NCBI GenBank assembly: GCA_951812955.1
Contig: OX638340.1
Location: forward strand, 2,368,001-2,432,000
DNA from: an uncultured Gemmatimonadota bacterium
GTDB taxonomy: Bacteria > JAAXHH01
Direction: 5' to 3'
Length of the DNA stretch: 64,000 bases
Shown piece after piece: positions 19,771 to 56,906 of the stretch; position 1 is the first letter of the stretch; every line of letters begins with the position of its first letter. The notes beneath the pieces are model-generated. The model saw nothing but the letters and a program-made list of their open reading frames with translations. It ran no database searches and was not told the origin of the DNA. Both the position numbers and the translations under genes were made by a program.

Positions 19771-20755
19771 AGGTAACGCAACGAATCATTTCCTCTACGT
19801 ATTCGAGCCTGTGCAGACTGAACCTATCGGCACTCAATGCTTCATGGGCCGCCTCCACGCATTCTTGGCTGTGAGTGGTCGCAAATACCTGTACGTGGAA
19901 AAGTTTGGCCGCTTCATCTACCGCTCGCCAGACGTCAGCAAGAACGGAGTGATGAAGGCCGTTTTCGATCTCGTCCACGAGTACGAGACCATTCGGCGTG
20001 GTGCCTATGGCAAGGACGAAGCGAGCGATTTGTGTCATGCCTTCACCCATAGATGGCAGAGGTATTAGTTCGCTCAACCCGATGTCGCCCCATATCATGG
20101 GCGAACCGTTTGAGTAAATGACTTCGATGCTTTCCAGTCTAGGTTCAACGGCTTTCATCGCACTTAAAAGTATATCTCCCCGCTTGTGCCTTCTCAGGTT
20201 TGCAAGTCTGGACGCATCATCGTGCAGGCTCCTTTTTAATCGCGGAAGGAGAATGATCGCCGGAAATTGAAAGCCATGAGTTGGTTGCTCTATTTCAAAC
20301 TTATCCCCTCTAATGTGAATGTGACTGTCGGTACCAACACCTGAATTATCGAAATACGTGAAGGTCAACGTACAATCATCAGAATAATCCATTCCCGGGC
20401 GATCTAAGGGAACTTCGGTTTGGGGCTGCCACGACGACGAAATCTGTAATTCCATTTCACCATACGTTGAATGTGTTCCTGCTATCTCGATGGTACTCCC
20501 CGTATCCAACCTGTTAAAAAGCTGATCCCAGACATTCCATCCCGATTCACCGAGGGTTCCTTGTTCCAGACCACGGACGACATGAGGATCTGATGCCATT
20601 CGCGCATTTCCAGCGCTTCCCAGCAGGAATACAGCCTCGAGCAAACTGGTCTTCCCCGAGTTGTTCTTGCCAGCAATGAGATTGATATCGCTCAGGCGGT
20701 TAACTTCGAGTCTGTTGAAGCAGCGGAAACCATGTATCCGCAAGCTTTCTATCAT
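19718..20755 (-). CDS. AAA_21/ABC-type ATPase, OLD-family-like (candidate defence ATPase)
   Basis: Walker A GKNNSGKTS, a signature-like SMGEGM, Walker B LVLVDEIENGLH and an H-loop TTHS. 345 aa. The gene sits in a roughly 42% GC islet. Confidence 0.75.
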   Translation of the reverse strand: MIESLRIHGFRCFNRLEVNRLSDINLIAGKNNSGKTSLLEAVFLLGSAGNARMASDPHVVRGLEQGTLGESGWNVWDQLFNRLDTGSTIEIAGTHSTYGEMELQISSSWQPQTEVPLDRPGMDYSDDCTLTFTYFDNSGVGTDSHIHIRGDKFEIEQPTHGFQFPAIILLPRLKRSLHDDASRLANLRRHKRGDILLSAMKAVEPRLESIEVIYSNGSPMIWGDIGLSELIPLPSMGEGMTQIARFVLAIGTTPNGLVLVDEIENGLHHSVLADVWRAVDEAAKLFHVQVFATTHSQECVEAAHEALSADRFSLHRLEYVEEMIRCVTYEHESIDAAVQHGLDVR

Positions 20756-22421: not shown

Positions 22422-22500
22422 TCCTGGCCTGCCGCCTGCTATACCTGGCCTGCAGCCTCGACTGCTATTCCTGCCCTGCCACCTGCTATTCCTGGCCGGA
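22422..22500. repeat. about four tandem copies of a roughly 19-bp unit (CCTGSCCTGCMRCCTGCTATW)
   Basis: Intergenic, between the hydrolase start and the Fic gene end. Confidence 0.4.
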
Positions 22501-23433
22501 ACTGCCCAATCTTTGATCCGTAGGTGTGCTTCGAGGCCGATCCTGTCCCCGGTTATCGAATGCCCTCCCGATCTTCCAGACCCCTTTCTCACGAAATGCG
22601 GGAATGGACTGCCGGCGGGCGGCGTTGGTTACGGCGGGCGCCGACAGGCCGTTCTGCCTGATGTAGTCCGAAAGCCGGATAATTTCTGCGCCTTTCAAGT
22701 AGCTCAACCACTTGTGCAGTGATTCCATTAGTCCAAGGAATACGATATTTTCCATAGCCTTAGTCGATGCGTTATCGCCATATTCCCTGAACGCCTGGTA
22801 GTACCTTTCCTTTTCGGAATTTCGAATGATGATACGCGGCAGACCGAGTTGCAGAAGCTGGAAATTCATGATGACCCGTCCCAGTCTGCCGTTTCCGTCA
22901 CAGAAGGGATGTATATATTCGAAAGCCAGATGAAAAAGTGCGATCTTATCCAGAAAGTAGGAATCCAGGTCGCTGACATAGTCGATCAGGAGATTGTCCA
23001 TCATGCGTTCCACGTGCTCGGGCTCGGGCGCAATATGCGTGCCCACTCGCACGTATTCGCCTTTCTGTCGGAATCGTCCGGCGATGGAATCATCGATGCC
23101 GCCAATCAGCATCTGATGGAATCCCAGGATAAGGGTCTCACTCAACTCGCTGTCTTTCGCCCTGCTACGTTTGTATTCCATGACCCGGGCAAGGTTCTTC
23201 GCCTCGTAGACTTCACGGATGGATACGTTGCGGGAGAGCATCTGTTCCAACAGGATCCGCTCTGTTTCTTCGAGCGACAGCGTGGAATTCTCGATGGCGT
23301 TCGAGTTGTATACGCCCTCGGGTATCTCAACCTCGTCGATCATGGACAAGAGCGAGTCCTTGCCCATTCGCAAGATGTCGAATTCACGCTTCAGCGATCG
23401 TATGCGGTTTTTCATTGGTCGTGTAGAGGGCAT
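22486..23433 (-). CDS. Fic-family protein (AMPylase/Doc fold)
   Basis: Canonical HPFCDGNGRLGR Fic motif with NSNAIENSTL upstream. The start is taken at MPSTRP, immediately downstream of an AT-rich promoter region. Confidence 0.8.
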   Translation of the reverse strand: MPSTRPMKNRIRSLKREFDILRMGKDSLLSMIDEVEIPEGVYNSNAIENSTLSLEETERILLEQMLSRNVSIREVYEAKNLARVMEYKRSRAKDSELSETLILGFHQMLIGGIDDSIAGRFRQKGEYVRVGTHIAPEPEHVERMMDNLLIDYVSDLDSYFLDKIALFHLAFEYIHPFCDGNGRLGRVIMNFQLLQLGLPRIIIRNSEKERYYQAFREYGDNASTKAMENIVFLGLMESLHKWLSYLKGAEIIRLSDYIRQNGLSAPAVTNAARRQSIPAFREKGVWKIGRAFDNRGQDRPRSTPTDQRLGSSGQE

Positions 23434-23596
23434 ATAAGTTAAATTAGTATATTCACTTATTATTGTCAAAATAATGTGAATAATCTCGTACATATCGTTA
23501 TCATTAACTAATTTATTAGCAATATAGGTTAACATACTCCCAATCCTCCCGACCCGAGGCCCCGGGGGGATTTCCACCGGAGCGGAGGGCCATCCC

Positions 23597-23654
23597 CGGG
23601 GCATCCTCGAGGCCCTCCAAAGCGCCATCACTGGGGCATCCTCGAGGCCCTCCC
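23597..23654. repeat. 22-bp direct repeat GGGGCATCCTCGAGGCCCTCC x2 in the divergent Fic/GNAT intergenic region
   Basis: Two identical copies 14 bp apart. A CRTGTTAAWCAR repeat also occurs at about 23700-23730. Confidence 0.4.
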
Positions 23655-31726: not shown

Positions 31727-31862
31727 AGACGATGGCCTTCACGGATCATTACACCCCGCTTCGTTGAAGGCACACTTCCCGTCAGCACATGAACGGATGG
31801 AAACACCCGTAACGTCAGCGACTTACTGATCGGACGGTTCCTCTCGCATGCGCGGCTTCATC

Positions 31863-32183
31863 TCATACTCGCATTGCGGCCGCGCGCCGTTTGGCAGCTC
31901 GGTTCCTGCGCTCCTGCGTAAGCTCGTAGCTCGCCTGCATCCGCATCCAGTGATCGGCGGTGCCCCAGCCTATGTCTTCCAGCGCCAGCGCCATGTTCGC
32001 GGATACCCCCGCCTTGCCATTCAGAAGGCGCGACAGTGTTCCTCGCTCGCATCCAAGCCGGGCCGCCGGCCTTCGTCCGCGAGCGATTGGTCGAAGTGAT
32101 CCAGCTTGTAGTTCTAATCTCATGCGGTCTACTGGACGCGTCGAGCGTTCACTACACAGCCTGCCTCCGTACACGCTGGCCAC
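31863..32183 (-). CDS. HigA-family HTH antitoxin-like protein, orphan (no adjacent toxin)
   Basis: The C-terminal LSRLLNGKAGVSANMALALEDIGWGTADHWMRMQASYEL matches the HigA HTH core. The N-terminal half is degenerate and Arg-rich. GTG start. Confidence 0.5.
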   Translation of the reverse strand: MASVYGGRLCSERSTRPVDRMRLELQAGSLRPIARGRRPAARLGCERGTLSRLLNGKAGVSANMALALEDIGWGTADHWMRMQASYELTQERRNRAAKRRAAAMRV

Positions 32184-32391
32184 CCAAGCACGGTCCTGAA
32201 CTAACTGTCACTTCCTTGCATGATTTCGCGTAAATAACATTTAATAGAGGGTAATTAACACACAATACACATACTTGATATGGTATATTAGTATACAGGC
32301 ATCATTATGACTTTGGTTTTCGATGACCGAAGAATATACCGGGGTTTCCTCAGGCAATTGTCCGATGAAAACCAAGCCATAGACACAGGAA

Positions 32392-32736
32392 GTGGGCAAT
32401 ATGTACAGCACAACTGTATTTGCGGTGGTGCTGTTGTCCTTGGCCCTGGGCTGTAGCGGTGATAAGAACCCCATAAATCCCGAACCGCCGTCACTCCCAC
32501 CACCACTCCCACCACCACCCATAACACAGGCGGACCCTGACGCATGCAAGGTCGGCCAGACACTTTCACCAGGCGAGCGTTGCAAGGTCGGCAGTGCGTG
32601 GTTCTCCGTTACCGATGATGGGGGTGGTCATTACACTGACACAGGGATACATATCATCGTGGGAGAAAGCATCACACTCGGTTCTTTCATAGTCCGCCAC
32701 TTAGGGGACGGTCGCTGGATTATCGAAGGAGTGTAG
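32392..32736 (+). CDS. small secreted lipoprotein, hypothetical
   Basis: Signal peptide plus lipobox (LALGCSG) and a Pro-rich linker. First gene of the AT-rich island. Confidence 0.5.
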   Translation: MGNMYSTTVFAVVLLSLALGCSGDKNPINPEPPSLPPPLPPPPITQADPDACKVGQTLSPGERCKVGSAWFSVTDDGGGHYTDTGIHIIVGESITLGSFIVRHLGDGRWIIEGV

Positions 32737-32798
32737 CAATAAAAAACTATGATAACCGGCGGGAGTTGCTTAGACGATTTCCGAGGGAGGGAAATACG

Positions 32799-33365
32799 AT
32801 GTATCGACTCATATTGTCCGCGTCAGTAGCAGTTTCAATCTTGGTTACTACGCAAGCGTTGGGCCAGCAGCCCGGGGCGTTCCTGCTGGTGGATCGTCCG
32901 GCGACAAACTTGATGGCTTTAACGGACTCCGTGGCACCGGCCATCCCACAGTCGACCGAAGTGAATGAGAAAAACCCCTGGGCGGCCTTCTTTTATTCGT
33001 GGCTTATACCGGGTGGAGGCCAGTTCTATAACGATCAAGGAAAGAAGGGGCTGCTTATGCTAACAGGCGCCGCTACCGGGATCGGATTTGTGATTTATGG
33101 CATCAATGACAAGCAGGAGGAATCCTCTGAAAGTATAACGCGTACAGCAACGTCGGTTACTTTCTCGAGCCGCTACGAAGAGAGTAGCAATGATTCGGCC
33201 ATAACCATCGGGGCGGCGATCTATCTGGGAAGCGCTCTATGGTCAATGATCGACGCGCCTGTTTCTGCTAACAAAATCAACCGGGAACTACGGCAGACTT
33301 CGTTGCAGATCAACCCGGTCATTGCAGAAGATCTCGCGGGCGTGAGCCTGACACTCAAATTCTGA
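32799..33365 (+). CDS. hypothetical exported/membrane protein
   Basis: Signal peptide, a central TM helix (GLLMLTGAATGIGFVIYGI) and a WLIPGGGQFYN motif. The start is taken at the internal MYRLIL. Confidence 0.5.
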   Translation: MYRLILSASVAVSILVTTQALGQQPGAFLLVDRPATNLMALTDSVAPAIPQSTEVNEKNPWAAFFYSWLIPGGGQFYNDQGKKGLLMLTGAATGIGFVIYGINDKQEESSESITRTATSVTFSSRYEESSNDSAITIGAAIYLGSALWSMIDAPVSANKINRELRQTSLQINPVIAEDLAGVSLTLKF

Positions 33366-33540
33366 TTTCCCCATTCGCATGGATCATAATGAACCGTTTA
33401 CGTTCGCCGTTCACTGTGAGTTGAGATCAAAAGCATAGGGAATTATACACAATAGATCCAATATTGAACCCGACCGACTCGGGCGTACTGCCTTTAAGTC
33501 CTTGTGGGTTGTGTAGAGTGCTGTGTAAGGATTTTAGCAC

Positions 33541-36500
33541 ATGTCACAGCGTTATTTACCTACCTCGAAGTGCAGTTACCGTTTTGCCGTTTACATCATA
33601 ACCTGCGTAACCCTTCTTGGGCTGGCCACCTGCGGCAAGGATAGCCCCACCAAGACCGTTACACCGCCACAACCACCGGCGCCACAGCCTCCGACGCCAC
33701 AGCCTCCGACGACAACTCAACCCGCGCGTATAACAATCACGCCGAGATCGGCGAGTCTGTCCGCCATTGGTCAGAGGATACAACTGTCGGCCACGATTTA
33801 TGACAATCGCAATGTTCAGATCCCAGAAGCCGCAGTGTCATGGTCGAGCAACGATCCTGCCGTTGCCACAGTAGGAGCCCAAGGCCTTGTCACAGCGGTC
33901 GGCAACGGCACGGCCACAATCACCGCGCGGTCAGGAAACGCCTCAGAAACGGCATCCGTGACGGTCTTGCAGACCATCGCCAGTATCGTTGTCTTTCCCA
34001 TGCATAGCACGCTCTATGCCATAGGCGAGACCGTGCAACTAAACGCACTTGCGAGTGATAGGAGCTTGCAGAGTGTAGCCGATGCTGCCTTTACATGGAT
34101 TAGCGACAAACCTGCCGTTGCCACAGTAAGCGACCAGGGCCTAGTCACCGCGGTCAGCAAAGGCACGGCCACCATCACCGCGCGGTCAGGAAACGCCTCA
34201 GAAACTGCAACCGTGACGGTAGTCAGTAGGGACGATACAAGACTCAACCGAGAAGCCCTTGTCGCACTGTATCATAGTACGAATGGACCTGGCTGGACAA
34301 ACAGCACAAACTGGCTGAGCGATGCGCCCCTCGGAAATTGGCATGGCTTGGCTTCGTTTTTCCATGGAGAGGTGGAAGAGGTACGGCATCTTAACCTAAG
34401 GGAGAACAATCTCCAAGGCAAGATCCCACCCGAAATCGGGCAACTGCAGAGCCTAGTAAGTCTGGGGCTCTCCAACAACCAGTTGACCGGAAATATCCCA
34501 CCCGAAATCGGGCAACTCAATGAACTGACAAGCATGGAACTCTCCAACAACCAGTTGAGCGGATATATCCCATCCGAAATCGGGCAATTGCAGAAATTGA
34601 CAAGCATGGGCCTCTACAACAACCAGTTGACCGGAAACATACCATCCGAAATCGGGCAATTGCGAAAATTGACAAGCATGGGCCTCTACAACAACCAGTT
34701 GACCGGAAACATACCATCCGAAATCGGGCAATTGCAGGAATTGACCTTCCTGGGCCTCTACAACAACCAATTGACCGGAAACATACCAACCGAAATCGGG
34801 CAATTGCAGGAACTAACGCGCCTGGACCTCTCCAACAACCAGTTGACCGGAAACATACCAACCGAAATCGGGCAACTGCAGGAGCTTACAGAACTATTCC
34901 TTGGGTATAATTCTGGCCTTACCGGTCCACTGTCTGTAGAGCTCATCATGCTGTCCAATCTAGAGTTTTTTTATATACATAATACGCAGATATGCATTCC
35001 GCAAACATCTCAGTATCTGGCATGGTTTGAAGGTATACGAAACAGGTCAGGAGGTTTATACTGCCCCGCTCCTCATAGAGACTCCCTGATCGCACTGTAT
35101 GACCGGACGGATGGTCCCAACTGGACAAACAGCACGAATTGGAAAAGCCTTGATCCGCTGGACCAGTGGTACGGTATTACTGTTGACGGAGAAGGTCAGG
35201 TTACGGGACTTTCCCTGGAGAACAACAACCTGAACGGAGCGGTACCCCATCATCTGAGTGATCTTTCAAATCTCAAGATCCTCAACTTGTCGTTCAATCC
35301 AGGTCTAACGGGAATCCTGCCTGCTTCAGTGTCGCGCCTGGAACTGGAAGAACTGGAACTGGATGGTACACAGGTCTGCGCGCCTGCGGACACCGAATTT
35401 CAACAGTGGCTGGCTGATATCCCGCAACGTACTGTTACCAACTGTACCGATCTGCGACCGGACTATTATGCATTGGCCGGGCTGTATTTCAACACCACTG
35501 GACAGAACTGGACAAACAACACGAACTGGTTGAGCGACAGGCCGCTTAACACATGGTTCGGCGTGCAGACTAATTCAAGCGAAGAAGTCACGGGGCTGGA
35601 CTTAAAGGAGAACAATCTCGCGGGAGCTATCCCATCTGAAATTGGACAACTACAAAAACTTGAAAATCTGTACCTTTATAGGAACCAGTTGTCGGGCAGC
35701 ATACCCCAGGAAATCGGGCAATTGCAGGAACTGAGATTCCTGGATCTTTCTGATAATCGATTGGCAGGAGATTTACCACCCGAAATCTGGCGACTACAGA
35801 AACTCGAAAATCTGTTCCTTTATGGCAACCAGTTGTCGGGCAGCATACCACCCGAAATTGGACAACTACAGAAACTCGAAAATCTGTTCCTTTATGGCAA
35901 CCAGTTGTCGGGCAGCATACCCCAGGAAATCGGGCAATTGCAGGAACTGAGATTTTTGTATCTTTCTGATAATCGATTGGCAGGAGATTTACCACCCGAA
36001 ATCTGGCGACTACAGAATCTTAGGGCACTGGCTATTCGTGGCGATGCCTATAACCGGGATTCAGGCATCCAGTTGACGGGTATCATACCAGCTGAAGTAG
36101 CTCAGCTGGAAAACCTCGAAACTCTGAATCTCGAGTTTAACAGGTTAACGGGAAATATACCTCCCGAGATCGGAGACTTACAGAAACTCCGATATCTTAG
36201 ACTTGGTGGCAATCGGTTAACCGGGACAATCCCTTCTGAAATCGGAAAACTCCATAATCTGGTAGACCTGATACTTTCTAACAATCGCTTGACGGGGAAC
36301 ATTCCATCCAATATCGGGCAACTTCCGACCCTCGTGACACTTGATCTTTCCAGGAACGAACTGGAGGGTTCCATACCGGCTGAAATAGGAGGTCTACAAT
36401 CCCTTACACAATTGACGCTTAGCAACAACCAGTTGACCGGAACCATTCCAACAGAATTCGCGGGACTTGGCATGCTGGAAGTGCTACGCGTATCATTTAA

Positions 36501-38214
36501 TCGACTGTCGGGCAGTATCCCTGACTCCTTCGGCGATCTGGCCAACTTGAGATATCTGGGACTTACGGACAATGCCAACTTGTCTGGCACGCTGCCCCTA
36601 TCTCTTATCGGTCTGAATCTCGATGATCTGCTGCTCGGTGGCACGATGCTGTGCGCGCCTGAGATTACAGAGATCCAGGACTGGCTGCGGGAGATACCCA
36701 ATAGCCGCGTTTCCCGTTGCGACACCATTAACCTCCGATCTGTAGCTTACCTTACGCAGGCAGTGCAGACGCTGGAGTATCCGGTTCCCCTGGTAGCTGG
36801 TGAGGATGCACTCCTTCGCGTCTTCGTCACGTCCGAAACGGATATGGACGCCTATATGCCCCTGGTGCGAGCAACTTTTTACGAAGGTAGCGCCGAGGTG
36901 CATACCGTGGACATGCCGAGCCAGGAAACGCCCATACCCACGGAGGTCGATGAGGGCGACCTTTCGTCCTCAGCCAACGCACGCATTCCCGGGTCGGTGC
37001 TGACGCCCGGACTGGAGATGGTCATCGAGATCGATCCTGAAGGCGAGTTGGACCCCGCTCTTGGCATAAACGGACGATTGCCAGCGGAAGGACGGATAGC
37101 CATCGATGTACGAGAAATGCCTCCTTTCGATCTGACGATGGTACCTTTTCTGTGGACGGAGAACCCGGACAGGTCCATCCTGGCGCGGGTGGAAGGCCTG
37201 ACTGCCGATTCCGAACTCTTTCGACTTACACGCGATATCCTGCCGGTAGGTGAGTTTTATCTCACCATTCGCGAGCCTGTATGGACTTCGGTGGAGCCAA
37301 CCCCCCACAATTTTGGATCTACCTTTCGTGAGACAGTCACTATACATGCTATGGACGGCGCCGGCGGACACTATATGGGGGTTCTCACAGGGAGCGGTAC
37401 CGGGCTGGCCAATGCTCCGGGAGTAGTGAGTGTCTCAACGCTTGATAACATGGTTATCGCCCATGAACTTGGCCACAACATGAGCCTGGGGCATGCTCCG
37501 TGTGAAATCGGCAGCAACGATCATTTTATAGACCCCGATTATCCCTATCCAGTTTCGGCAGTTGGAGTTTGGGGATACGATCTGCTCAATGAGATGCCTG
37601 TGCAACCTGATACAAAAGAAGTTATGGGCTGTGGTAGCTGGATCAGCGATTACTTCTTCACCAAGGCTATAGGCTATCGATACTATCAAGAAAACGAAAC
37701 TTTGTTCTCCGCGGCATATGAACCACCAGTTCGAGGCCTGCTGCTCTGGGGTGGCGTGAACAGCGACGGTGAAGTTTTACTGGAACCGGCCTTTGTGGTT
37801 GACGCATCACCGTCTTTGCCCGACCTGTATGGGCCGTATCTACTGTCCGGCGAGGATGATGTCGGCGGCACGCTGTTCAGCCTCTCCTTCGGCATGGCCG
37901 AGATCGCAGACGGTGATGGCGAGAGAGCCTTCGCCTTCATCATTCCGGCGAGTACTGAGTGGTCAAACCGGCTTACGCACCTCACGCTGTCAGGGCCTGA
38001 GGGTGTCGCGACACTGGGCGGTGATGGGGGGTTGGAAGAGGAGCCTGCCGCCGCACTCCTGCTGGATCCCACCACGGGCAAAGTGAGAGGCCTCCTGCGC
38101 GACTGGCCGGTGCCGGGGATTACGGCTGTTTCAGCAAGGCGTGTGTTGCCTGAGCCGGGACTGGAGGTTTTTATCAGTTCGGGGGTGCCTGCTCCCGCCG
38201 ACTGGAGGCGGTAA
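33541..38214 (+). CDS. giant surface lipoprotein: 2x Big_2 + 3x plant-type LRR arrays + C-terminal metzincin-like zinc-metalloprotease domain
   Basis: 1557 aa. Lipoprotein signal (LLGLATC) and a PPQPP linker. Two Ig-like Big_2 domains. Three arrays of 24-aa LRRs (LxxLxLxxNQLTGxIPxEIGQL), each preceded by a cap motif ALY..T.GPxWTNSTNW...P...W.GV. HELGHNMSLGH (HExxH....GH) at about 37462-37494. Confidence 0.8.
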   Translation: MSQRYLPTSKCSYRFAVYIITCVTLLGLATCGKDSPTKTVTPPQPPAPQPPTPQPPTTTQPARITITPRSASLSAIGQRIQLSATIYDNRNVQIPEAAVSWSSNDPAVATVGAQGLVTAVGNGTATITARSGNASETASVTVLQTIASIVVFPMHSTLYAIGETVQLNALASDRSLQSVADAAFTWISDKPAVATVSDQGLVTAVSKGTATITARSGNASETATVTVVSRDDTRLNREALVALYHSTNGPGWTNSTNWLSDAPLGNWHGLASFFHGEVEEVRHLNLRENNLQGKIPPEIGQLQSLVSLGLSNNQLTGNIPPEIGQLNELTSMELSNNQLSGYIPSEIGQLQKLTSMGLYNNQLTGNIPSEIGQLRKLTSMGLYNNQLTGNIPSEIGQLQELTFLGLYNNQLTGNIPTEIGQLQELTRLDLSNNQLTGNIPTEIGQLQELTELFLGYNSGLTGPLSVELIMLSNLEFFYIHNTQICIPQTSQYLAWFEGIRNRSGGLYCPAPHRDSLIALYDRTDGPNWTNSTNWKSLDPLDQWYGITVDGEGQVTGLSLENNNLNGAVPHHLSDLSNLKILNLSFNPGLTGILPASVSRLELEELELDGTQVCAPADTEFQQWLADIPQRTVTNCTDLRPDYYALAGLYFNTTGQNWTNNTNWLSDRPLNTWFGVQTNSSEEVTGLDLKENNLAGAIPSEIGQLQKLENLYLYRNQLSGSIPQEIGQLQELRFLDLSDNRLAGDLPPEIWRLQKLENLFLYGNQLSGSIPPEIGQLQKLENLFLYGNQLSGSIPQEIGQLQELRFLYLSDNRLAGDLPPEIWRLQNLRALAIRGDAYNRDSGIQLTGIIPAEVAQLENLETLNLEFNRLTGNIPPEIGDLQKLRYLRLGGNRLTGTIPSEIGKLHNLVDLILSNNRLTGNIPSNIGQLPTLVTLDLSRNELEGSIPAEIGGLQSLTQLTLSNNQLTGTIPTEFAGLGMLEVLRVSFNRLSGSIPDSFGDLANLRYLGLTDNANLSGTLPLSLIGLNLDDLLLGGTMLCAPEITEIQDWLREIPNSRVSRCDTINLRSVAYLTQAVQTLEYPVPLVAGEDALLRVFVTSETDMDAYMPLVRATFYEGSAEVHTVDMPSQETPIPTEVDEGDLSSSANARIPGSVLTPGLEMVIEIDPEGELDPALGINGRLPAEGRIAIDVREMPPFDLTMVPFLWTENPDRSILARVEGLTADSELFRLTRDILPVGEFYLTIREPVWTSVEPTPHNFGSTFRETVTIHAMDGAGGHYMGVLTGSGTGLANAPGVVSVSTLDNMVIAHELGHNMSLGHAPCEIGSNDHFIDPDYPYPVSAVGVWGYDLLNEMPVQPDTKEVMGCGSWISDYFFTKAIGYRYYQENETLFSAAYEPPVRGLLLWGGVNSDGEVLLEPAFVVDASPSLPDLYGPYLLSGEDDVGGTLFSLSFGMAEIADGDGERAFAFIIPASTEWSNRLTHLTLSGPEGVATLGGDGGLEEEPAAALLLDPTTGKVRGLLRDWPVPGITAVSARRVLPEPGLEVFISSGVPAPADWRR
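34380..34900. repeat. about seven near-identical 72-bp tandem DNA repeats (one LRR each) inside the giant gene
   Basis: Units such as CAACCAGTTGACCGGAAACATACCATCCGAAATCGGGCAATTGC... recur with more than 90% identity. Confidence 0.7.
35640..36020. repeat. second block of near-identical 72/144-bp tandem LRR-coding repeats
   Basis: CTACAGAAACTCGAAAATCTGTTCCTTTATGGCAACCAGTTGTCGGGCAGCATACC... is repeated almost exactly three times. Confidence 0.65.
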
Positions 38215-41047: not shown

Positions 41048-41596
41048 TCACACGTTCGTCTCGATCAGCGTAACGCTGTGGGGATCCAGCAGGGTATAGT
41101 CCACGACTTCGAATCGGTTGCCGTCGACGTCGGTGAGCAAAAGCCGCGTATCCGAGGCCCAGTGGGTGTTCTCGTGGCCGCGGATGACGAACTCCCGTCT
41201 GCCCCGGTCGGTCATGACGTTCCAGTAGGTGACGCCGTACTCCATCTGAATGGAGTCAATGCGCTGTATCGTGGCGCGCAGGTACCGGTGGTCCAGCTCT
41301 TCCTCGATGACCTTGCGGGAATCTTCGTCCAGGTCGTCCATGTCCCGGATGAAGGCCACTTCCTCGTTCTTTATGTCCAGGAGCGACACGTACCGGTCGG
41401 TGTGGGCCAGGGGCGAGGCCTGGACCGGCCGGACGCGTATATAGGACCGCTCGGCGCCGACCGTCATGCGCACCGTGTTCGTCGGCGCCCGGAAGACCCG
41501 TATCTCGTGAGCCTGATAGGGTTCGACGGGGGCGTTCTCGATGCCCGTCTCGAATTCAAAGCTGTCCGGCGCGTCTACGCCTGGTTCATCCGGCAT
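41048..41596 (-). CDS. hypothetical protein, co-operonic with the ABC exporter pair (possibly DUF1854-like)
   Basis: 182 aa, 14 bp downstream of the second ABC gene on the same strand. The DUF1854 assignment is from memory and unverified. Confidence 0.45.
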   Translation of the reverse strand: MPDEPGVDAPDSFEFETGIENAPVEPYQAHEIRVFRAPTNTVRMTVGAERSYIRVRPVQASPLAHTDRYVSLLDIKNEEVAFIRDMDDLDEDSRKVIEEELDHRYLRATIQRIDSIQMEYGVTYWNVMTDRGRREFVIRGHENTHWASDTRLLLTDVDGNRFEVVDYTLLDPHSVTLIETNV

Positions 41597-41610
41597 TTCT
41601 ATCTCCCCGC

Positions 41611-43899
41611 TCAGGATGTATGTCCGTTGGCGCCGCTGTGCGGGTCGTTCCGGCCCCCGCCCACGGCCATGACGGCGGTGCTGGCACGCTGGGTTTCAAC
41701 CATTCGGTAGAAATGACCCTTCATGCCCAGCAGCTCCGCATGAGTGCCCGTCTCCACGATCCGTCCCGCGTCCAGCACCACCAGACGGTCCGCTCGGCGA
41801 AGGGTCGACAGCCGGTGGGCGATGGCAAAAGTCGTCCGGCCCTTCACGAGATTGGCGATGGCCTCCTGGATGAGCTTCTCCGTGTGGGTGTCCACCGAGG
41901 AGGTGGCCTCGTCCAGGATCAGGATGCGGGGATCGTGGATGATAGCCCGCGCGATGGCGATCCGCTGCTTTTCGCCGCCCGACAGTTCCTTGCCGTTCTC
42001 GCCGATCTGCGTATCGTATCCGTCGGGCTTCGCGCAGATGAAGTCGTGGGCGTTCGCCGTCCGCGCCGCCCGCATGATCTGCTCGAAGGAGGCGTCCGGA
42101 CTGCTGTACCGGATGTTCTCCGCGACGGATCCGCTGAAGAAGTAGGAGTCCTGCAACACCACGCCGATCTGCCTTCGAAGGTCCTTCAGGCTGATGTCCC
42201 GGATCGGCACGCCGTCGATCTTCAGGCCGCCGTCATCGATATCGTAAAACCGGCACAGCAGGTTGGTCATCGTCGTCTTGCCGGAACCGGACTTGCCTAC
42301 CAGACCGATCATCTCGCCCGGCTGCACGTGGAGGTTGATGTCGTGGAGTACGGGCTTGCCGGCCTCGTAAGCAAAGACCACGTCGCTGAATTTCACCTCG
42401 CCCTTTACGTCATTCATCTCTACCGGGACGTCCCGATCCTCGGTTTCCGCCGGCGTGTCTACGATCTCGAAGACCTTTTCCGCGCCGCTCATGGCACGGC
42501 TCGACCAGGTGTTCAGTTCGCCGAACCACCGAAGGGGCTCGTAGAGCATCCAGAGATAGGCGATGAACATCATGAGTGCGCCGAGGGTGAACGAGTCGTC
42601 GATTATGGCAGAACCCCCGTAGTACCAGACCAGGATCAGGCCAGACGAGGTAAGCATGCTGACCGTGCTGAAGAACACGGCCGCCTCCTTCTCGCTTTCG
42701 TAATCTCCCCGGAAGACGCCTTCGTTGCTGCTGCGGAACCGGCGCATCTCACGTTTTTCCTGGACGAAGGTCTTGACGACGCGCACGGAGGAGAGCATCT
42801 CGCCCGCGAGCCCTACGAGTTTGCCCCACCGGTAGTACTTCGTCCGGAAAGCCCGGATCAGCCGGATCCAGAAGAACCATCCTCCCGTTACGAGCAGAGG
42901 TATGGGAATGAGCACGAGAAGCGTGAGTTGCCAGCTGGTTATAAAAAGCAGGACCAGGATGCCCACCATGAGCAGGAGGTTGGTAATGATGTAGGGCACT
43001 CCGTCGACCAGGAACCACATCATGCTTTCCGTGTCGTTGGACACCCGCGAAATCAGGGATCCGACCTGGCGCTTGTTGTAGAATTTCATGCTCAGGCGGG
43101 AAAGGTTCTCGTACAGGTCTTCGCGGACGGACACGATCACGCGGCCGCCGAGCCATACGGAAAGCCGGTCCCTGAAGATCTCGAGGACGTAGGATCCCAG
43201 GCGGACGAACGCGAACGCGCCGATGAGGTAGTAGAGGAACGTCAAGGCGTCCTCGCGCGCGTCTACGTCCGCGACCAGGACGTCGTCGATGATGTAACGC
43301 ATAATGTAGGGCGGGCCGAGTTCCGCCAGGGTGAAGAGGAGCGACAGGAATACCATCATCGCGATGCGGCCCTTGAAGGGCAGGGCATACTTGGCGATCC
43401 GTCCCATCATCGCGAGCCGGTTGGTGCACGCCGAACAGATCCCGTTCGGCTCAGGCAGGAGGCGGTCGCATTTGCCGCACCTTGTCCGGTCTACTTCTCC
43501 CTGCATGTCGACCGGTTCGTCCTTGATGAGCTGGTCGATGCCCCGGGCGATCCGAGCGAACTTGGCGCGCTGGGTCGCGGTGTAGCGGAGGACCTCGATC
43601 TCTTCGTTTCCGATTACCACGTTGATTCGGCCCGAGCCTACCAGTTCCTCCACTGCGGCGCTTTTGGCGTCGGAAAACTCGATGGAAGCGTCCCCGTTTC
43701 CCATGCTTGCGCCGTTGGAATCGAACCGCATCAACCGCTGGTCCGTCACCACGAGCCAGCGTTCCTCGAACCGCAGTTCTTCCGTCAGGTCGGTCGCCGC
43801 CGCGATGCGGATGGTTTCCCCTTCCCGCAGCGCCTCCCGGCAACGGTCGGCCAGCGCGTCGGGCATCCGCTCTTCGTAGCTGGTTGTGCTATCCGTCAT
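41611..43899 (-). CDS. ABC exporter, fused permease-ATPase, with a roughly 180-aa N-terminal PH-like + Cx2C..Cx2C zinc-ribbon extension
   Basis: Type I exporter TMD (6 TM helices). NBD with Walker A GKSGSGKTT, signature LSGGEKQR and Walker B ILILDEAT. N-terminal WLVVTDQRLM and RCGKCDRLLPEPNGICSAC. Confidence 0.85.
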   Translation of the reverse strand: MTDSTTSYEERMPDALADRCREALREGETIRIAAATDLTEELRFEERWLVVTDQRLMRFDSNGASMGNGDASIEFSDAKSAAVEELVGSGRINVVIGNEEIEVLRYTATQRAKFARIARGIDQLIKDEPVDMQGEVDRTRCGKCDRLLPEPNGICSACTNRLAMMGRIAKYALPFKGRIAMMVFLSLLFTLAELGPPYIMRYIIDDVLVADVDAREDALTFLYYLIGAFAFVRLGSYVLEIFRDRLSVWLGGRVIVSVREDLYENLSRLSMKFYNKRQVGSLISRVSNDTESMMWFLVDGVPYIITNLLLMVGILVLLFITSWQLTLLVLIPIPLLVTGGWFFWIRLIRAFRTKYYRWGKLVGLAGEMLSSVRVVKTFVQEKREMRRFRSSNEGVFRGDYESEKEAAVFFSTVSMLTSSGLILVWYYGGSAIIDDSFTLGALMMFIAYLWMLYEPLRWFGELNTWSSRAMSGAEKVFEIVDTPAETEDRDVPVEMNDVKGEVKFSDVVFAYEAGKPVLHDINLHVQPGEMIGLVGKSGSGKTTMTNLLCRFYDIDDGGLKIDGVPIRDISLKDLRRQIGVVLQDSYFFSGSVAENIRYSSPDASFEQIMRAARTANAHDFICAKPDGYDTQIGENGKELSGGEKQRIAIARAIIHDPRILILDEATSSVDTHTEKLIQEAIANLVKGRTTFAIAHRLSTLRRADRLVVLDAGRIVETGTHAELLGMKGHFYRMVETQRASTAVMAVGGGRNDPHSGANGHTS

Positions 43900-43974
43900 G
43901 CCTCAGTGTCCTTGCCTATTCCGACGGCCGGCTTCGTTAAAGTCCTCACGGACCGGCCGGTTTTGATCAAACTT

Positions 43975-44048
43975 CGGTCAGGCCCCGGTCAAGCCTCACG
44001 GATCTTCCCGGCCGGCACGTGAGCGGTCAGGCCCCGGTCAAGCCTCGT
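43975..44048. repeat. about 24-bp direct repeat CGGTCAGGCCCCGGTCAAGCCTC x2 between the two ABC genes
   Basis: Copies at about 43975-43999 and 44024-44048. Confidence 0.45.
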
Positions 44049-44059
44049 TCAGGCCCTGG

Positions 44060-46324
44060 TCAGGCAACCTCCATGATCTCGGAGGTGGCTTTCTGCAGCC
44101 GCACCAGATGATGGAAATGACCGCGGTTTGCGATCAGTTCCTCGTGGGTGCCTTCCTCGACGACCTTTCCCTGCTCCAGCACCACGAGCCTGTCGGCGTC
44201 CCGCAGCGTGGAAAGGCGGTGGGCGATGGCGATCGTGGTGCGTCCCTTGATCAACCGGGCAATGGCTTCCTGGAGCTGTTTCTCCGTCTCGGCGTCCACC
44301 GAGGAGGTCGCCTCGTCCAGGATCAGGATGCGGGGGTCGTGGAGGATCGCCCGGGCGATCGAGACGCGCTGCTTCTCACCGCCCGACAGTCCGTTGCCCT
44401 TGTCCCCGAGTATCGTGTCGTATCCATCGGGCTTTGCGAGGATGAAGTTGTGGGCATTTGCCGCCCGGCCCGCCGCCATGATATCCTCAAAACTCGCGGC
44501 GGGTTTTCCATAGGCGATATTCTCCCGGATCGTCCCGTTGAAGAGGATCGGTTCCTGCAGGACGACGCCGATATGGCCACGCAGATCCTCGAGCCGGATG
44601 TCCCGCAGGTCCACGCCGTCCAGGGTGATCGAACCGTAATTGACATCGTAGAACCGGCAGATGAGATTGATGGTCGTACTCTTCCCGGCGCCCGACTTGC
44701 CAACCAGCCCGATCATCTCGCCGGGCCGGATCCGGAGATTGACGTCCCGGAGCACCGGAAGGGCTGCGTCATAGCCGAAGGTCACGTTATTGAATACGAT
44801 CTCGCCCTGCGTGCGCGGCATCGGCTTCGCGGTCCGGTCCTCATAATTCTCCGGTTCCATGTCGATGAGCTCGAATACCCGTTCGGCGGCGCTCATCGCC
44901 CGGGTCATCCAGCTGTTGACCCGGCCGAGCCACCGTAGCGGTCCGTAAAACATCTGCAGGTAGAAGTAGAACAACATCAGTTCGCCCGGGGTAAGTTCCT
45001 GGCCGAGCACCTGCCTGCCCCCCACCAGCCAGACCACGATGAAGCCCAGGAAGTTCAGCAGGCCCATGGTGGAGAAGTAGTAGATCCACTGCTTCTCGGT
45101 CCAGTATTCCAGGGCGAACATGTCCCGCGCGTTGCGCCTGAACCGGTCGACTTCCCTGTTTTCCTGTGCGAAGGCCTTGACGATGCGAATCCCCGAAAGG
45201 GACTCCTGGATGTGGGTGAAGAACCCTTCCCATTGGCGCCACATGCGTGTGTAATAGGACCGCAGTCTTCGGTACAGGACCCGGCCCCATATGACGATGA
45301 ACGGCACGGGAATGAGAATGTAAAGCGTGAGCACCCAGTTGGTATACAACAGCATACCGATGATCCCGAGCGTCGTCAGCCAGCGGAGGACGAGGAATGG
45401 CAGGCCGTCCACCAGGAAGCTGCGCACGTTCCGGGTGTCCCGCGTAACCCGCGAAAGCAGGCCGCCCGTCTTTTGCTTGTCGTGGAATCCCAGCGACAGG
45501 TATTCGACGTGGTGGTACACCTGGGCCCGGATATCCGCCACAACCCGGGCGCCTACCCAGGCCGTCAGCCAGCCGTTCGCCATCTCGCCCAGCCAGCGGA
45601 TGACAAGCAGTCCGGCCATGGCCGCGACGAACCAGAACAGAAGCTCCTTGTCCCCGTCCGGGAAGGCGTCGTCGATGATGAGCTGCGTGATCTTGGGCGG
45701 GAGGAGTTCCGCCACACTGAGTACCGCGAAGAGCCCCACCATGGTTATGGCCTTGGCCCGATGGGCGCCAAGGTAGGAGCAGATCCGCTTGAGCATGCCC
45801 CACTTGCTGACACAGGCCGGACACAGCCCGTCCTTCGTGGGCAGGCGACGGCCGCAAGTCTCGCAGACTACCCGCGGGAACTCGGTCTTGACCTGGAACG
45901 GCTTTTCCTCGATGTGCTGCTCGATACCGCGCTGCGCCTCGTTGAAGACGTCGACCCGGCTCTGGGAATACCGGATGAGCGGGATGGTGTCTTTGGCCGT
46001 GGAAACTTCCAGGCAGGAACCGCCGACCAGGGGTTCCACCGCCACCCTGGTCAGGTCCGCCAGCGGGACGGCGATGTCGTCGCCGGCGCCGTTGAGTTCC
46101 AGGGTCATGACGCGGCGGTCGGTTACGATGAGCCAGGAAGGCTCGAATCGGCCTTTCGCATCCATGTCCGATTCCAGGGTGATGCGGATTTCTTCGTTGG
46201 GTTCCAGAACGGGGTAGAGTTTTTTCTGAATCTGATCCGGCAGGGGATCGGCCAGGCGCATAGAACTTCCTTTGGGCCTATGCTGCGGGGAGTGGCTGCG
46301 TGCGGACTGAACGGAACCGTTCAT
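44060..46324 (-). CDS. ABC exporter, fused permease-ATPase, paralog with the same N-terminal PH-like + zinc-ribbon extension
   Basis: Walker A GKSGAGKST, signature LSGGEKQR and Walker B ILILDEAT. N-terminal WLIVTDRRVM and CETCGRRLPTKDGLCPAC. Confidence 0.85.
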   Translation of the reverse strand: MNGSVQSARSHSPQHRPKGSSMRLADPLPDQIQKKLYPVLEPNEEIRITLESDMDAKGRFEPSWLIVTDRRVMTLELNGAGDDIAVPLADLTRVAVEPLVGGSCLEVSTAKDTIPLIRYSQSRVDVFNEAQRGIEQHIEEKPFQVKTEFPRVVCETCGRRLPTKDGLCPACVSKWGMLKRICSYLGAHRAKAITMVGLFAVLSVAELLPPKITQLIIDDAFPDGDKELLFWFVAAMAGLLVIRWLGEMANGWLTAWVGARVVADIRAQVYHHVEYLSLGFHDKQKTGGLLSRVTRDTRNVRSFLVDGLPFLVLRWLTTLGIIGMLLYTNWVLTLYILIPVPFIVIWGRVLYRRLRSYYTRMWRQWEGFFTHIQESLSGIRIVKAFAQENREVDRFRRNARDMFALEYWTEKQWIYYFSTMGLLNFLGFIVVWLVGGRQVLGQELTPGELMLFYFYLQMFYGPLRWLGRVNSWMTRAMSAAERVFELIDMEPENYEDRTAKPMPRTQGEIVFNNVTFGYDAALPVLRDVNLRIRPGEMIGLVGKSGAGKSTTINLICRFYDVNYGSITLDGVDLRDIRLEDLRGHIGVVLQEPILFNGTIRENIAYGKPAASFEDIMAAGRAANAHNFILAKPDGYDTILGDKGNGLSGGEKQRVSIARAILHDPRILILDEATSSVDAETEKQLQEAIARLIKGRTTIAIAHRLSTLRDADRLVVLEQGKVVEEGTHEELIANRGHFHHLVRLQKATSEIMEVA

Positions 46325-47797: not shown

Positions 47798-50700
47798 TTA
47801 CTTCGCTCCGGCCTTCTCACGCGTACGCCTGCCACTCAGATAGGCCTTCAGCTTCGGCGGAAAATCCCGCTTGACCAGTTCCTGCCGCAACGCCCACTTT
47901 TCTTCGTCCGACACCGGAGACGCCTCCCTGATATCACCGCCCTCCATGATCAGGATCGGTTCGCCGTCCCGGTAGAGGATCCGGTTGTTGGTGATGCCGG
48001 GAATGCGCCGCCCGGGCGTAATGATCCCGACCAGATTGAGCGGGTCGGCCGCGCTGATGGCGACGAGCGTGCCCTGCTTCTCCTTCCGCCGGATACTTCT
48101 CAAAAGGGTGACGGCCTCGCCCAGGGCGTACTGCTCGCCCCAGACGCCGTTCACGAACCGGCCGCCGCGGATCTCTCCCCTTGCTTCCATCCGCCTCAGT
48201 ACCCGTACCAGGTCCCTCCACGGCGGCGAGGTGTTTTCCCGTTCCGTGAGCCGCCTGAACACCACGCCGTACCTGGCCAGGGCGACGCGGGCATAGGCCT
48301 CGAGATCCTCCTCCGGGTTGCCGTCCTCCGGTGTCCTGGCAGTCAGCCCCCACCGTCCCGCCGTCGACAGGTCGAAGGGATTCCTGCGTTCCCGTCCCCG
48401 CCTGGACTCCCTGTGGCGCGTCGGCGCCAGCAGGGCCCTGAGCCCCGCGAAACTGTCGGAGGTCGCCATCCCCGCCGAGACCAGTTCCGCCACGGCTTCC
48501 TCGGCGTGGGTACGCAGGATCCCGGCCTGCGCGACGATGTCGTCGAAGAACACAGCGCCTTGCCGGGTCATGACGTCCAGTGCCGTCTTCGCGTAGGTGG
48601 ACAGCGAAAGATCCTCGTCGCCGGTCACGCCGCTCAGGGACATCCACAGCGACCGGTTCATGCGGTCCACGATGGCGATGGGCGTCGTTCGGATCGGGCC
48701 GGCCGTCTTCCCGTTCTCGCCGTTCGATTTATGGGGACGAAGCCGTCCCCACGCGTACTTGCCGGAAAGACACAGGTTGTCGAGCCAGACATAATCGTAG
48801 TCGGTAACGCGGGAAGGCAGGATCTCGCTCTCCCAGGCCGCGGCCGGCGCCTCCACGCCTTCGAGCATGCGCAGCACGGCGGTCACGGCGTCGGCCCCCT
48901 TCAACCGGGTGTCTGGCGCCAGGTGATGCCAGGTGAAAAGGAACTGCATGAAGTCGGCAGGTGAAACAGGCTGGATTTCGCGGCGCAGCTTCGTGATCGT
49001 GAAGCGATGGATCCGGGCGAGAAGCCGGCGCTCGCACCATTCCAGCCCGTCCGCGGCCGGCGAAAACTGTCCTCTGAAGACAAATCCCTCGTTCTCGAGC
49101 ACGGAAAGTGCCTTTTCGATCTTCCCGACCGGCAGATCAATGGAATCGGCCAAAGCAGCAGCCGTAACCGGGCCGAGTGTCTCCAGTCTTCCGCGCACCA
49201 GTTCCACCAGGGCGGATTCTTCCGTCGCGGATGCTCCACCCGCGGATGCTCCACCCGCGGGTTGAAAACTCTTTTCCAGGTTGCCCCTCACTTCGGCCGG
49301 GATTTCCTCCTCCGGCTCGAACCTTCCCTGCGGGTGCACCTGCTCGAAGTGAATGCGTCGCTCAAGGGGCGCCCACAATCGCCGGCCTCCACGGGTGATG
49401 AGCGTGGCGGCCCGGCGGTCGCCTTCCAGCTCGGCGTAGTAGTCCGTCCAACTCCCGTACTGATCCCCCTTCTTTCCCTCTTCCTCCGTCACGTACCCCG
49501 CGAGCACCAGAGCGTCGTGGAGTTCGTCGGGACTCCGCACCTCGGGCCAGGCGTCGCCGCGGACGGTGTCGATGGCCTCCGGGTCCAGGCGTCCCAGGTC
49601 CCCCGCTACGGCCGGGTCGAGCCAGCGGCGGTTCCGAACGGCGTTGGTCCGCCGCTCCTCGAGCGGCGCGTCGTCCAGGAAGGCGTACGGACGGGCGTTG
49701 AGAATCTCCTCCGCCATGGGCGAGGGCTCGCGGAGGTCCCGCGCGTGCACGTTCATTTCCCCTGCCTTCATCGTCTTCAGCACGGACTCCAGCGTCTCGA
49801 TGTCCATGGCCTCGTGCAGGCAGTCTTCGATGGTCTGGCTGACCAGGGGATGGTCCGGCACTTCCCGGTCTCCCGCGATATTCTCGAGGCACGCGATCTG
49901 GTCGGGGAAGATCTGGGCGATCAGGTCTTCGGACACGGACCGCTGTATCTGCGGCGGCACCCGGTCCCCGCCCCTGCGCCGCAACACGGCCAGGGCGATC
50001 GACGCGTTCCACCGCCAGCGCACCTCGAACATGGGCGCGTCGAGCAGGGCCTGGACCAGGACTTCGCGTACCGAAGCGGCGTTGAGGTATTTGAAAACGT
50101 CGTCGAGGGGAAAGCTGTGGGTGGCGCCCAGGGACAAAATGATGGCATCCTCGTTCGCCGCGGCCTGCAGCTCGAAGTTGAACGTGCGGCAGAACCGCTT
50201 GCGCAGGGCAAGGCCCCATGCCCGGTTTACCCGGCTGCCGAAGGGACTGTGGAGCACGAGGTGCATGTCGCCGGCCTCGTCGAAAAACCGCTCGGCCACC
50301 AGGTCCTTCTGGGAGGGTATCACGCCGAGTGCAGCCTTGGCAGTGCCCAGGTACTCCGCGATCTGCGTCGCCGCCACGTGGGAGATGCCCGCGGACTCCA
50401 TCAGCCATTCCTCGGCCTCCCGCTTCCATTCCGCGTCGAGCTTTCTTCCGCTATCCCGTCCGTTTACGGCATCCGATCCGTCGTTGTTCAACGGTCCGTT
50501 TTCGGCGCCCGATCCGTCGTCAGTGTTCAGCGGTCCGTTTTCGGCGCCCGATCCGTCGTCAGTGTTCAGCGGTCCGTTCCCGATGTCCATCCGGCTCGCA
50601 ACTTCCTCTCTCAACCGCGACAGGGAAGCGGATAGTTCGGCCGTCCTCCCCGGCGCTTCGCCGAACCAGAAGGGCATCGTGGGCGGCATGCCCTGGGCGT

Positions 50701-56000: not shown

Positions 56001-56063
56001 CCTCGCCGCCGGCAAAGATTCCGCAAATTCGAAGTAAGTAAATAACCATCAGTAAGGAGTTTT

Positions 56064-56086
56064 AGAAATAGTAATTTCTATTGACA
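56064..56086 (+). promoter_or_regulatory. vapBC promoter/operator: 16-bp palindrome AGAAATAGTAATTTCT abutting a TTGACA -35
   Basis: Perfect 6-bp inverted arms at 56064-56079, TTGACA at 56081-56086 and an AT-rich -10 region just downstream. Confidence 0.4.
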
Positions 56087-56111
56087 ATAGTAAGGGTTTT
56101 CTTGTAGAGTA

Positions 56112-56770: not shown

Positions 56771-56906
56771 GGAACGAATACTCACCCGTCCGATGTTTTA
56801 CCGAGTGACCAAATAGCTGAAACGAACCAGGGAAGATTGCCTGCTTACCATGAAGAAGCGCTGCTACTTAATCGAGGCATACGCTTCTTCTTAATCGAGA
56901 CATACC

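Follow-up and report, generated by a model that had tools for sequence, protein, structure and literature searches.

The locus described here raises two connected questions, namely how a bacterial chromosome comes to encode leucine-rich repeats (LRRs) resembling those of plant receptors on the same polypeptide as a zinc protease, and what purpose the encoded protein would serve. It is located in a stretch of 64,000 nucleotides from an uncultured Gemmatimonadota bacterium (contig OX638340.1, positions 2,368,001 to 2,432,000; hereafter termed the window), where an open reading frame of 1557 codons, supported by its Pfam domains and by a positional orthologue, extends exactly over 33541..38214 (+), as had been proposed in a preliminary description of the sequence. 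From N- to C-terminus, the protein starts with a signal peptide, which ends in Cys31 in a lipobox-like context, continues through a linker rich in Pro and Thr into two Big_2 domains and three capped arrays of LRRs of the plant-specific (PS) class, and closes with an M66-like metalloprotease module. The gene is an ordinary, typical member of its family and no singular chimera, and we consider it rather probable that its product is displayed as a surface lipoprotein and binds, through the faces of its LRRs, a protein or glycoprotein outside the cell, possibly one of a host, that is then cleaved by the metzincin.

The typical character of the gene is reflected in an exhaustive profile search over 1.84 billion representatives clustered at 50% identity, which identified 7,523 family clusters at E≤1e-3, 4,899 at E≤1e-10 and 1,825 at E≤1e-30. 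The domain combination, which had initially been regarded as unusual for a bacterium, is thus the common form of a large family. In all of the best 150 matches, the M66-like module is found at the C-terminus of proteins that reach lengths of up to 2,731 residues. Representatives of at least 1,200 residues show a median length of 1,537 residues and a median count of 15 LRRs (15–17 in complete members), with at least one N-cap present in 81 and at least three in 44 of 84 sequences. The HExGH motif resides at a constant distance of about 244 residues from the C-terminus across representatives, and when LRR scaffolds with catalytic domains of other kinds were searched for, all long tails turned out to be M66-like modules, either active or degenerate. 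The family forms a deep, uncharacterised branch of M66-like metzincins, with 1,800 or more clusters at 50% identity. Among species-representative genomes, we have detected at least 302 loci, the best 79 of which are contained in metagenome-assembled genomes (MAGs) labelled as Candidatus Latescibacterota, Gemmatimonadota (Longimicrobiales and Candidatus Palauibacter) and Acidobacteriota, and in a few Gammaproteobacteria bins. The family is often present in several copies per chromosome, as illustrated by the four members in OZ253560.1, and tandem arrays occur; no paralogue was found within the 64 kb of the window. Several carriers are derived from sponges, such as Candidatus Palauibacter ramosifaciens, whose sister species bear the epithets irciniicola and rhopaloidicola (PMC10469786), and an enrichment of LRR proteins has been described for MAGs associated with sponges, Latescibacterota and Acidobacteriota among them (PMC8163846; also PMC9531527, PMC12993501). 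Some members carry the name 'M66 family metalloprotease' assigned by the NCBI pipeline, and our literature search found no published description of an LRR–M66 fusion or of M66 proteins in sponge symbionts. As far as we have found, the family is labelled automatically in databases and is uncharacterised experimentally and apparently also in the literature.

The presumed catalytic activity resides in the C-terminal module, for which an AlphaFold model of high confidence was obtained (predicted local distance difference test, pLDDT, of 90.4; predicted template-modelling score, pTM, of 0.91). In this model, a β-sandwich (aa 1067-1207; 36739..37161, +) precedes the putative metzincin catalytic domain (aa 1208-1390; 37162..37710, +), which is followed by a second β-sandwich (aa 1391-1557; 37711..38211, +) with the conserved end ...PEPGLEV..S.G.P....W.R. 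Neither sandwich belongs to a Pfam family. The central domain is predicted to contain the β-sheet, the active-site helix with HExxH and the long C-terminal helix of the metzincin catalytic-domain fold, as well as the Met. The zinc-binding motif HELGHNMSLGH (aa 1308-1318; 37462..37494, +), recognised in the sequence and in both of our family alignments, is intact, with histidines at +0, +4 and +10 (H1308, H1312, H1318) and a glutamate at +1 (E1309), in the spacing of the extended metzincin motif HExxHxxGxxH with its three His ligands and catalytic Glu (PMC7542363). A metzincin-like C-terminus had been suggested at the outset, with the lack of a metalloprotease fold named as the finding that would overturn it, and both the intact motif and the predicted catalytic-domain fold have sustained this suggestion. 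A homology search with aa 1034-1557 retrieved at least 942 proteins with a nearly invariant HELGHN(L/M)xLxHA, and in the alignment underlying our first profile (A1) as well as in one restricted to members without LRRs (A2) the three His are invariant and the Glu is nearly so. As candidate for the methionine of the Met-turn we propose M1362 (37624..37626, +), an invariant position found 44 residues past the third His in the family context DLMSYC, which in the model is placed between this His and the C-terminal helix. A conserved pair of cysteines, Cys1321 and Cys1364, flanks the zinc loop and the Met.

Within the metzincins, the module should be regarded as a distant relative of M66 and not, as had been assumed in the preliminary description, of the reprolysins (M12B). 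In isolation, it scores 21.6 bits against the Pfam model of M66 (cutoff 20.6), which is also matched by 13 out of 13 family members tested (best E-value 4.4e-9), in all cases over positions 166-236, and the nearest solved structure to the module is StcE, with 14% sequence identity. In contrast, the reprolysin models all remain under their cutoffs (Reprolysin_3 with 18.7 versus 22.4 bits, Reprolysin_5 with 17.5 versus 27 and also Reprolysin_4), and StcE scores higher over a longer alignment. In reprolysins and adamalysins, the third His is followed by an Asp (HExxHxxGxxHD), whereas the residue following H1318 is an Ala, and we have thus rejected the assignment to M12B. On the level of sequence profiles, a first comparison with the PDB based on A1 was dominated by LRR overhangs, and its repetition with A2 found no more than weak matches (E 0.02) to the active sites of ADAMs and of reprolysins from snake venom.

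The LRRs preceding the protease are organised in three separately capped modules, each headed by an N-cap and closed by a C-cap with a pair of cysteines. The first (aa 233-510; 34237..35070, +), defined by its AlphaFold model, its Foldseek matches and a 72-nt tandem array in the DNA, contains a helical N-cap, about nine 24-residue LRRs and a C-cap with Cys485/Cys508. The second (aa 511-640; 35071..35460, +), defined by the same model and by its counterpart in the orthologue introduced below, contains about three LRRs and Cys613/Cys635, and the third (aa 641-1066; 35461..36738, +), defined by its repeats and their consensus, contains about 14 LRRs, among them a 144-nt super-repeat and one irregular unit, and Cys1038/Cys1060. 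The consensus in this protein, LxxLxLxxNxLxGxIPxEIGQLxx, follows the definition of PS-LRRs as repeats of 23-25 residues with the sequence LxxLxLxxNxLSGxIPxxLxxLxx (PMC4030839), with at least 9 of 11 defining positions matched in 20 of the 27 repeats. Equivalent relationships were found on the level of Pfam (LRR_1, LRR_8 and LRR_14 at E 1e-52 to 1e-66), of PDB sequences, where a profile including the last LRRs found its best matches in the plant receptor kinases GSO1, MIK2 and FLS2 (E 1e-53 to 1e-42), and of predicted structure, where the model of modules 1 and 2 (pLDDT 89.5) retrieved plant LRR receptor ectodomains as all of its top 50 Foldseek matches in the PDB (E 7e-20 to 1e-15). The proposed plant-type arrays have thus been confirmed. 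Such repeats are already known in bacteria, as is evident from partial, LRR-only NCBIfam matches to the Xanthomonas effectors XopAE, XopAC and XopL; together with those to the LIC_11051 family of Leptospira, these matches score 120-262 bits, far below the respective cutoffs of 450-1000 bits. The N-caps, located at aa 252, 528 and 657, share the consensus ALxALYxxTxGxxWTNxTNWLSDxPLxxWxGV, whose short form WTNxTNW...WxG[LIV] heads all three modules; a helical N-cap is predicted with pLDDT values of 88-96. In this motif and in their helical nature they resemble the LRRNT caps to which they had been compared, but they are devoid of cysteines and do not match any Pfam model at E≤10, and an identity with LRRNT_2 was therefore rejected.

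Between-repeat variation in the LRRs is highest at positions 2, 3, 5, 7 and 8 of the concave face, with 2.5-2.7 bits compared to 1.7-1.8 bits at other non-consensus positions, in both this protein and its orthologue, which is the pattern that would be expected of a ligand-binding face. On the DNA level, the arrays show a self-similarity of 86% (in the 72-nt tandem array of module 1) and 73%. The adjacent units at aa 353 and 377 (34594-34737) are 95.8% identical and share an exact repeat of 70 nt, the longest in the gene, and the two-unit 144-nt super-repeat (35659-36018; aa 707-754 versus 779-826) shows 94.4% identity. The near-identity of these units suggests recent tandem duplication.

At the N-terminus, a predicted signal peptide (aa 1-31; 33541..33633, +), with basic residues R4, K10 and R14 preceding a hydrophobic stretch, ends in the lipobox-like sequence GLAT-C31-GKDSPTK. 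The Cys following the hydrophobic region is conserved in 100 family members with intact N-termini, where T (33 cases), A (28), S (24) and G (10) are found at -1 and where the subsequent residues follow the pattern G-K/R-D-S-P-T, most often GKDS. It is followed by a Pro/Thr-rich linker (aa 32-62; 33634..33726, +), which contains a 15-nt tandem repeat (located by the program TRF at 33665-33711), and by two Ig-like domains (aa 63-232; 33727..34236, +), which match Big_2 (PF02368; E 2e-20) in two stretches with 72.9 bits at a cutoff of 22.8, as had been claimed, and Big-like with an E-value of 4.6e-20. This region contains a 140-nt direct repeat of 84% identity with a spacing of 255 nt. All cysteines beyond the signal peptide are paired within single domains, in the three LRR C-caps and in the catalytic domain, as would be expected of an extracytoplasmic protein. 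Together, these sequence features suggest that the protein is a lipoprotein. Exposure on the outer surface is its most likely location, considering the long linker, the stalk-like Big_2 domains and the analogy to surface lipoprotein enzymes of related phyla.

We next turn to the origin of the gene. The window is part of an ordinary chromosome, with genes for a DnaE2-type polymerase, an Lhr helicase, transketolase, CysRS, a UPF0182 protein and ABC exporters. Its DnaE2 matches a protein on a 3.81-Mb contig with 100% identity and is 80-86% identical to proteins in MAGs labelled as Gemmatimonadetes or Latescibacterota, which are the same MAGs that contain the best matches of the M66 module. A syntenic locus was found on the 3.76-Mb chromosome OZ253560.1 (L001), where the proteins encoded by the surrounding genes are 75-93% identical (hisC 87%, PhyH 75%, ACC-deaminase-like 76%, GH32 79%, DUF1854 93%, ABC 88%). 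The most conserved part of this neighbourhood is formed by the gene for the DUF1854 protein followed by two ABC exporter genes (41048-46324, -), the first of which accounts for the 88%. At L001, an orthologue of 1,596 residues is located between the PhyH and the deaminase gene. It shares with our protein the lipobox context (LALATCGKDSPTKP), the M66 module and the arrangement of the LRRs in three capped modules, of which the short one in the middle is 60.8% identical, and it contains three Big_2 domains. Its identity to our protein amounts to 49% overall, with 49% in signal peptide and linker, 52-61% in the LRR modules and 63% in the M66 module. The gene is thus diverging much faster than its neighbours. 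Since the orthologue occupies the equivalent position between the same flanking genes, its acquisition predates the split of the two genomes, and the big gene is not a recent, genome-specific arrival. DNA similarity between both loci ends at 31727 and resumes at 33613, which identifies the block preceding the gene (31728-33540), with the small genes higA, orf114 and that for a DUF5683 protein, as an indel.

With respect to composition, the lower GC content noted initially is confirmed by a GC content at third codon positions (GC3) of 0.57, or 0.53-0.60 in each of four sub-regions, compared to 0.76-0.84 in the flanking housekeeping genes, and is no effect of amino acid composition. The two small upstream genes show equivalent values of 0.57-0.60 (0.595 in case of DUF5683) and higA of 0.63. 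GC3 of the L001 orthologue is also depressed (0.64 versus 0.74-0.76). In loci of the nearest lineage (L002, L005, L014, L020 and L023), the family genes have a GC content of 0.51-0.54 compared to 0.57-0.65 in their flanks (0.51/0.59 in L002, 0.54/0.61 in L005, 0.51/0.65 in L020 and 0.52/0.64 in L023); in loci of Longimicrobiales (such as L027, L035 and L046), the family genes match their flanks (0.66-0.69). The low values in the nearest lineage are compatible with a low-GC gene lineage that is exchanged among co-resident bacteria. The idea of a horizontally acquired island, raised in the preliminary description, is thus sustained in part: GC3 is atypical, but the big gene has a positional orthologue, and the indel between the two genomes is confined to the upstream block.

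These data bear on the possibility that the locus might be a recent foreign island or an artefact of assembly resulting from collapsed or chimeric repeats, which appears highly improbable to us. Such an origin would account for the low GC3 across 31.8-38.2 kb, for the orphan antitoxin at the edge of an indel and for the near-identical units within the gene, and lateral transfer has been reported for sponge-enriched genes (PMC8163846). However, it is difficult to reconcile with an independently assembled chromosome in which the three modules recur in equal order between the same neighbouring genes, with best homologues that come from the lineage of the best DnaE2 matches, and with a source contig of megabase scale (3.81 Mb). 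The arrays are 73-86% identical and the longest exact internal repeat extends over just 70 nt. Collapsed or chimeric repeats, about which the preliminary description had been concerned, are thus unlikely. Moreover, no tRNA, integrase or flanking repeat was found to mark the low-GC3 block. The sole tRNA call in the window, a 94-nt tRNA-Glu(ctc) predicted by ARAGORN at 49625-49718 (+), is located inside the 1517-residue Lhr reading frame on the opposite strand and is probably a false positive.

For the resident gene, we envisage that the protein would be exported and lipidated at Cys31, with the Pro/Thr linker and the two Big_2 domains serving as a stalk and the three disulfide-capped PS-LRR arrays offering concave protein-binding faces. 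Latter would capture an extracellular protein or glycoprotein, with a host (sponge) matrix or cell-surface glycoprotein as plausible target, and the tethered C-terminal module, acting as a zinc endopeptidase with a distant relationship to StcE (MEROPS M66), would cleave the captured protein or its neighbours. In an alternative scheme, which we find unlikely, the protein would be a nutritional exoprotease that feeds the cell on extracellular proteins, such as a collagen- or spongin-like matrix or dissolved and particulate protein, with LRRs and Big_2 domains as general means of adhesion and holding. The intact protease motif, the nearby GH32 and transport genes and an anchored design, which may be likened to the nutrient-acquiring surface lipoprotein enzymes of related phyla, would be in line with such a role, as is the reported enrichment of polymer-degrading enzymes in sponge symbionts of these lineages (PMC8163846). 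Still, it leaves unexplained why many paralogues with variable LRR arrays should be present in one genome, why variability should concentrate on the concave face and why the gene should diverge so fast relative to its neighbours, and no recognisable peptide-uptake operon surrounds it. It also does not explain the existence of paralogues where HExxH is replaced by variants such as FAQGVGGLSGLHFAAC and PHLLGHNFFLGDAPC. These copies, found in three tandem genes at L076 (2-9467) and in one gene at L078 (10102-12501), appear to be pseudoproteases in which the M66-like module is otherwise kept, as are the LRR arrays. The occurrence of multiple, fast-diverging copies with LRRs that vary on their concave face and of pseudoprotease paralogues thus favours specific recognition over bulk degradation. 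The same paralogues could be taken as indication that the protein is an adhesin or decoy of the 'eukaryotic-like protein' type, which would only bind, for example by masking the cell or by blocking host phagocytosis, and where the protease would be structural or vestigial; eukaryote-like repeat proteins of sponge symbionts can lower phagocytosis when expressed in E. coli (PMC8163846). For the gene under study, we regard this as distinctly improbable, since HExGH is kept here and in 130 of 137 diverse representatives and since the catalytic residues are strictly conserved, with an invariant third His and Met and a nearly invariant catalytic Glu in the family alignments.

A guided surface protease thus remains our preferred assignment, and several observations weigh against it. 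In the context of the full protein, the match to Peptidase_M66 (PF10462; aa 1273-1348) scores 19.6 bits and is thus below the cutoff of 20.6, and it covers 71 of the 306 profile positions (166-236), which comprise the active-site core alone. StcE was not detected in the sequence-profile search of the PDB, and a Ser takes the place of the Gly expected at +7 in the metzincin motif. At the N-terminus, the Thr at -1 violates the strict lipobox pattern [LVI][ASTVI][GAS]-C, so that of the signal peptide and lipobox proposed initially, the conserved Cys is sustained but the strict PROSITE-type rule fails. The loss of the catalytic motif at L076 and L078 implies that catalysis is dispensable for part of the family, and the link to sponges is drawn from the carrier MAGs and not from the habitat of the genome containing the window. 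Finally, glycoprotease activity is not assignable by homology (PMC7542363), and the O-glycoprotease selectivity of StcE can thus not be inferred for this protein on such grounds.

On a larger scale, it is tempting to speculate that capped PS-LRR/M66-like lipoproteins constitute a major, as yet undescribed system by which Gemmatimonadota, Latescibacterota and Acidobacteriota associated with sponges and corals interact with their hosts, where diversifying LRR arrays would serve as interchangeable modules of recognition and target a surface-tethered StcE-like protease to specific matrix or immune glycoproteins of the host, although we put this forward as a tentative proposal of rather low probability. 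If correct, it would assign a role to much of the 'eukaryotic-like LRR protein' repertoire of these symbionts and account for the way in which such proteins arrive at the host in the absence of dedicated secretion systems. The delivery route of symbiont LRR proteins has been described as unclear, with few lineages encoding classical secretion systems (PMC8163846; for delivery also PMC9531527). Within the lineages covered by this study, one conserved design, consisting of a predicted lipoprotein anchor, capped plant-class LRRs and an intact StcE-like zinc protease, is common to a very large group of such LRR proteins. The vague category 'eukaryotic-like' thereby gives way to a hypothesis that can be tested, namely that these proteins are displayed on the surface and that their LRRs guide the proteolysis of an extracellular target. 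The M66-like branch might also be of interest as a source of glycoprotein- or matrix-specific proteases.

The genes preceding the protease conform to their initial description as two small genes for secreted proteins and an orphan antitoxin-like gene. The first, orf114 (32392..32736, +), is part of the low-GC3 block and encodes a small putative lipoprotein with a canonical LALG-C lipobox, a Pro-rich linker and a Cys-containing domain of about 65 residues with a conserved Cys and a W-R-I motif. In jackhmmer, its full-length sequence drifted to the signal peptides and Pro-rich linkers of the big lipoproteins, whereas its C-terminal domain alone led to two true homologues, both directly upstream of family genes (L018, 3829-4200; L011, 3695-4000). 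An equivalent gene is missing from most loci including the syntenic L001. The orf114 protein could be a partner of the big protein, for example an inhibitor or chaperone. It is followed in the same block by a gene for a secreted or membrane protein of the DUF5683 family (32766..33365, +; 33 bits at a Pfam cutoff of 26.7), which is absent at the L001 locus. The left edge of the block is marked by a gene for a HigA-family antitoxin (31863..32183, -; TIGR02607 with 48.3 versus 47.7 bits), which is also absent from L001 and next to which no reading frame for a HigB-like toxin was found. A PADLOC scan of the LRR-protease protein and HigA returned no matches, and a scan for promoters and terminators fared no better than on shuffled sequence. 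Elsewhere in the window, three further patches of low GC content contain candidate defence genes. At 19099-20755 (-; GC 0.48-0.52), an ATPase matching PADLOC AbiLi/PDC-M38A (3.7e-52) and a DUF3226 protein matching PDC-M38B form a candidate two-gene anti-phage system. A Fic-domain protein encoded at 22486-23631 (-) matches PDC-S04/SoFic (1e-36 to 1e-30), and an AAA_14+DUF4143 ATPase at 58922-60319 (-) matches PDC-S01 (2.5e-160). Genes for a GIY-YIG protein and for a PolB-like exonuclease (55158-57764) are located nearby.

Each of the features combined in this protein has counterparts in known systems, from which it differs in distinct ways. The eukaryotic-like proteins and repeats (ELPs/ELRs) of sponge symbionts are, like the protein described here, LRR-rich and originate from lineages with reported LRR enrichment (PMC8163846, PMC9531527, PMC12993501), but the respective studies count repeat domains, and we have found among them no description of a conserved protease fusion or a lipoprotein anchor. 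LRRs of the same class are also present in bacterial proteins such as the Xanthomonas type III effectors XopL, XopAE and XopAC and the LIC_11051 family of Leptospira, although the Xanthomonas effectors are injected and carry other catalytic domains, whereas our protein is a probable surface lipoprotein with a protease. CpaA (M72) and the surface lipoprotein BT4244 (M60) are glycoprotein-targeting proteases with accessory Ig-like or carbohydrate-binding domains, yet both belong to other families, BT4244 being a gluzincin, and neither contains LRR arrays. The relationship to reprolysins, ADAMs and ADAMTS proteins (M12B) is limited by Pfam scores below cutoff, by the Ala following the third His and by the longer alignment with StcE. 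The plant LRR ectodomains of FLS2, MIK2, GSO1, BRI1 and PGIP are built from the same class of 24-residue repeats in capped arrays. In contrast to these, the bacterial protein contains neither a transmembrane segment nor a kinase, its N-caps lack a Cys cluster, the cysteines of its C-caps are spaced by 21-22 residues instead of the Cx6C found in plants, and three separate capped arrays are combined in one chain. The closest counterparts of its protease are StcE and TagA (MEROPS M66), the secreted mucinases of E. coli O157:H7 and Vibrio cholerae, with a sequence identity of 14% and a match limited to the active-site core. While StcE is released by type II secretion and devoid of LRR and Big_2 arrays, our protein contains both and is presumably anchored as a lipoprotein. 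Collectively, the family described in this study can thus be viewed as a variation on known kinds, namely StcE-like metzincins and LRR surface proteins.

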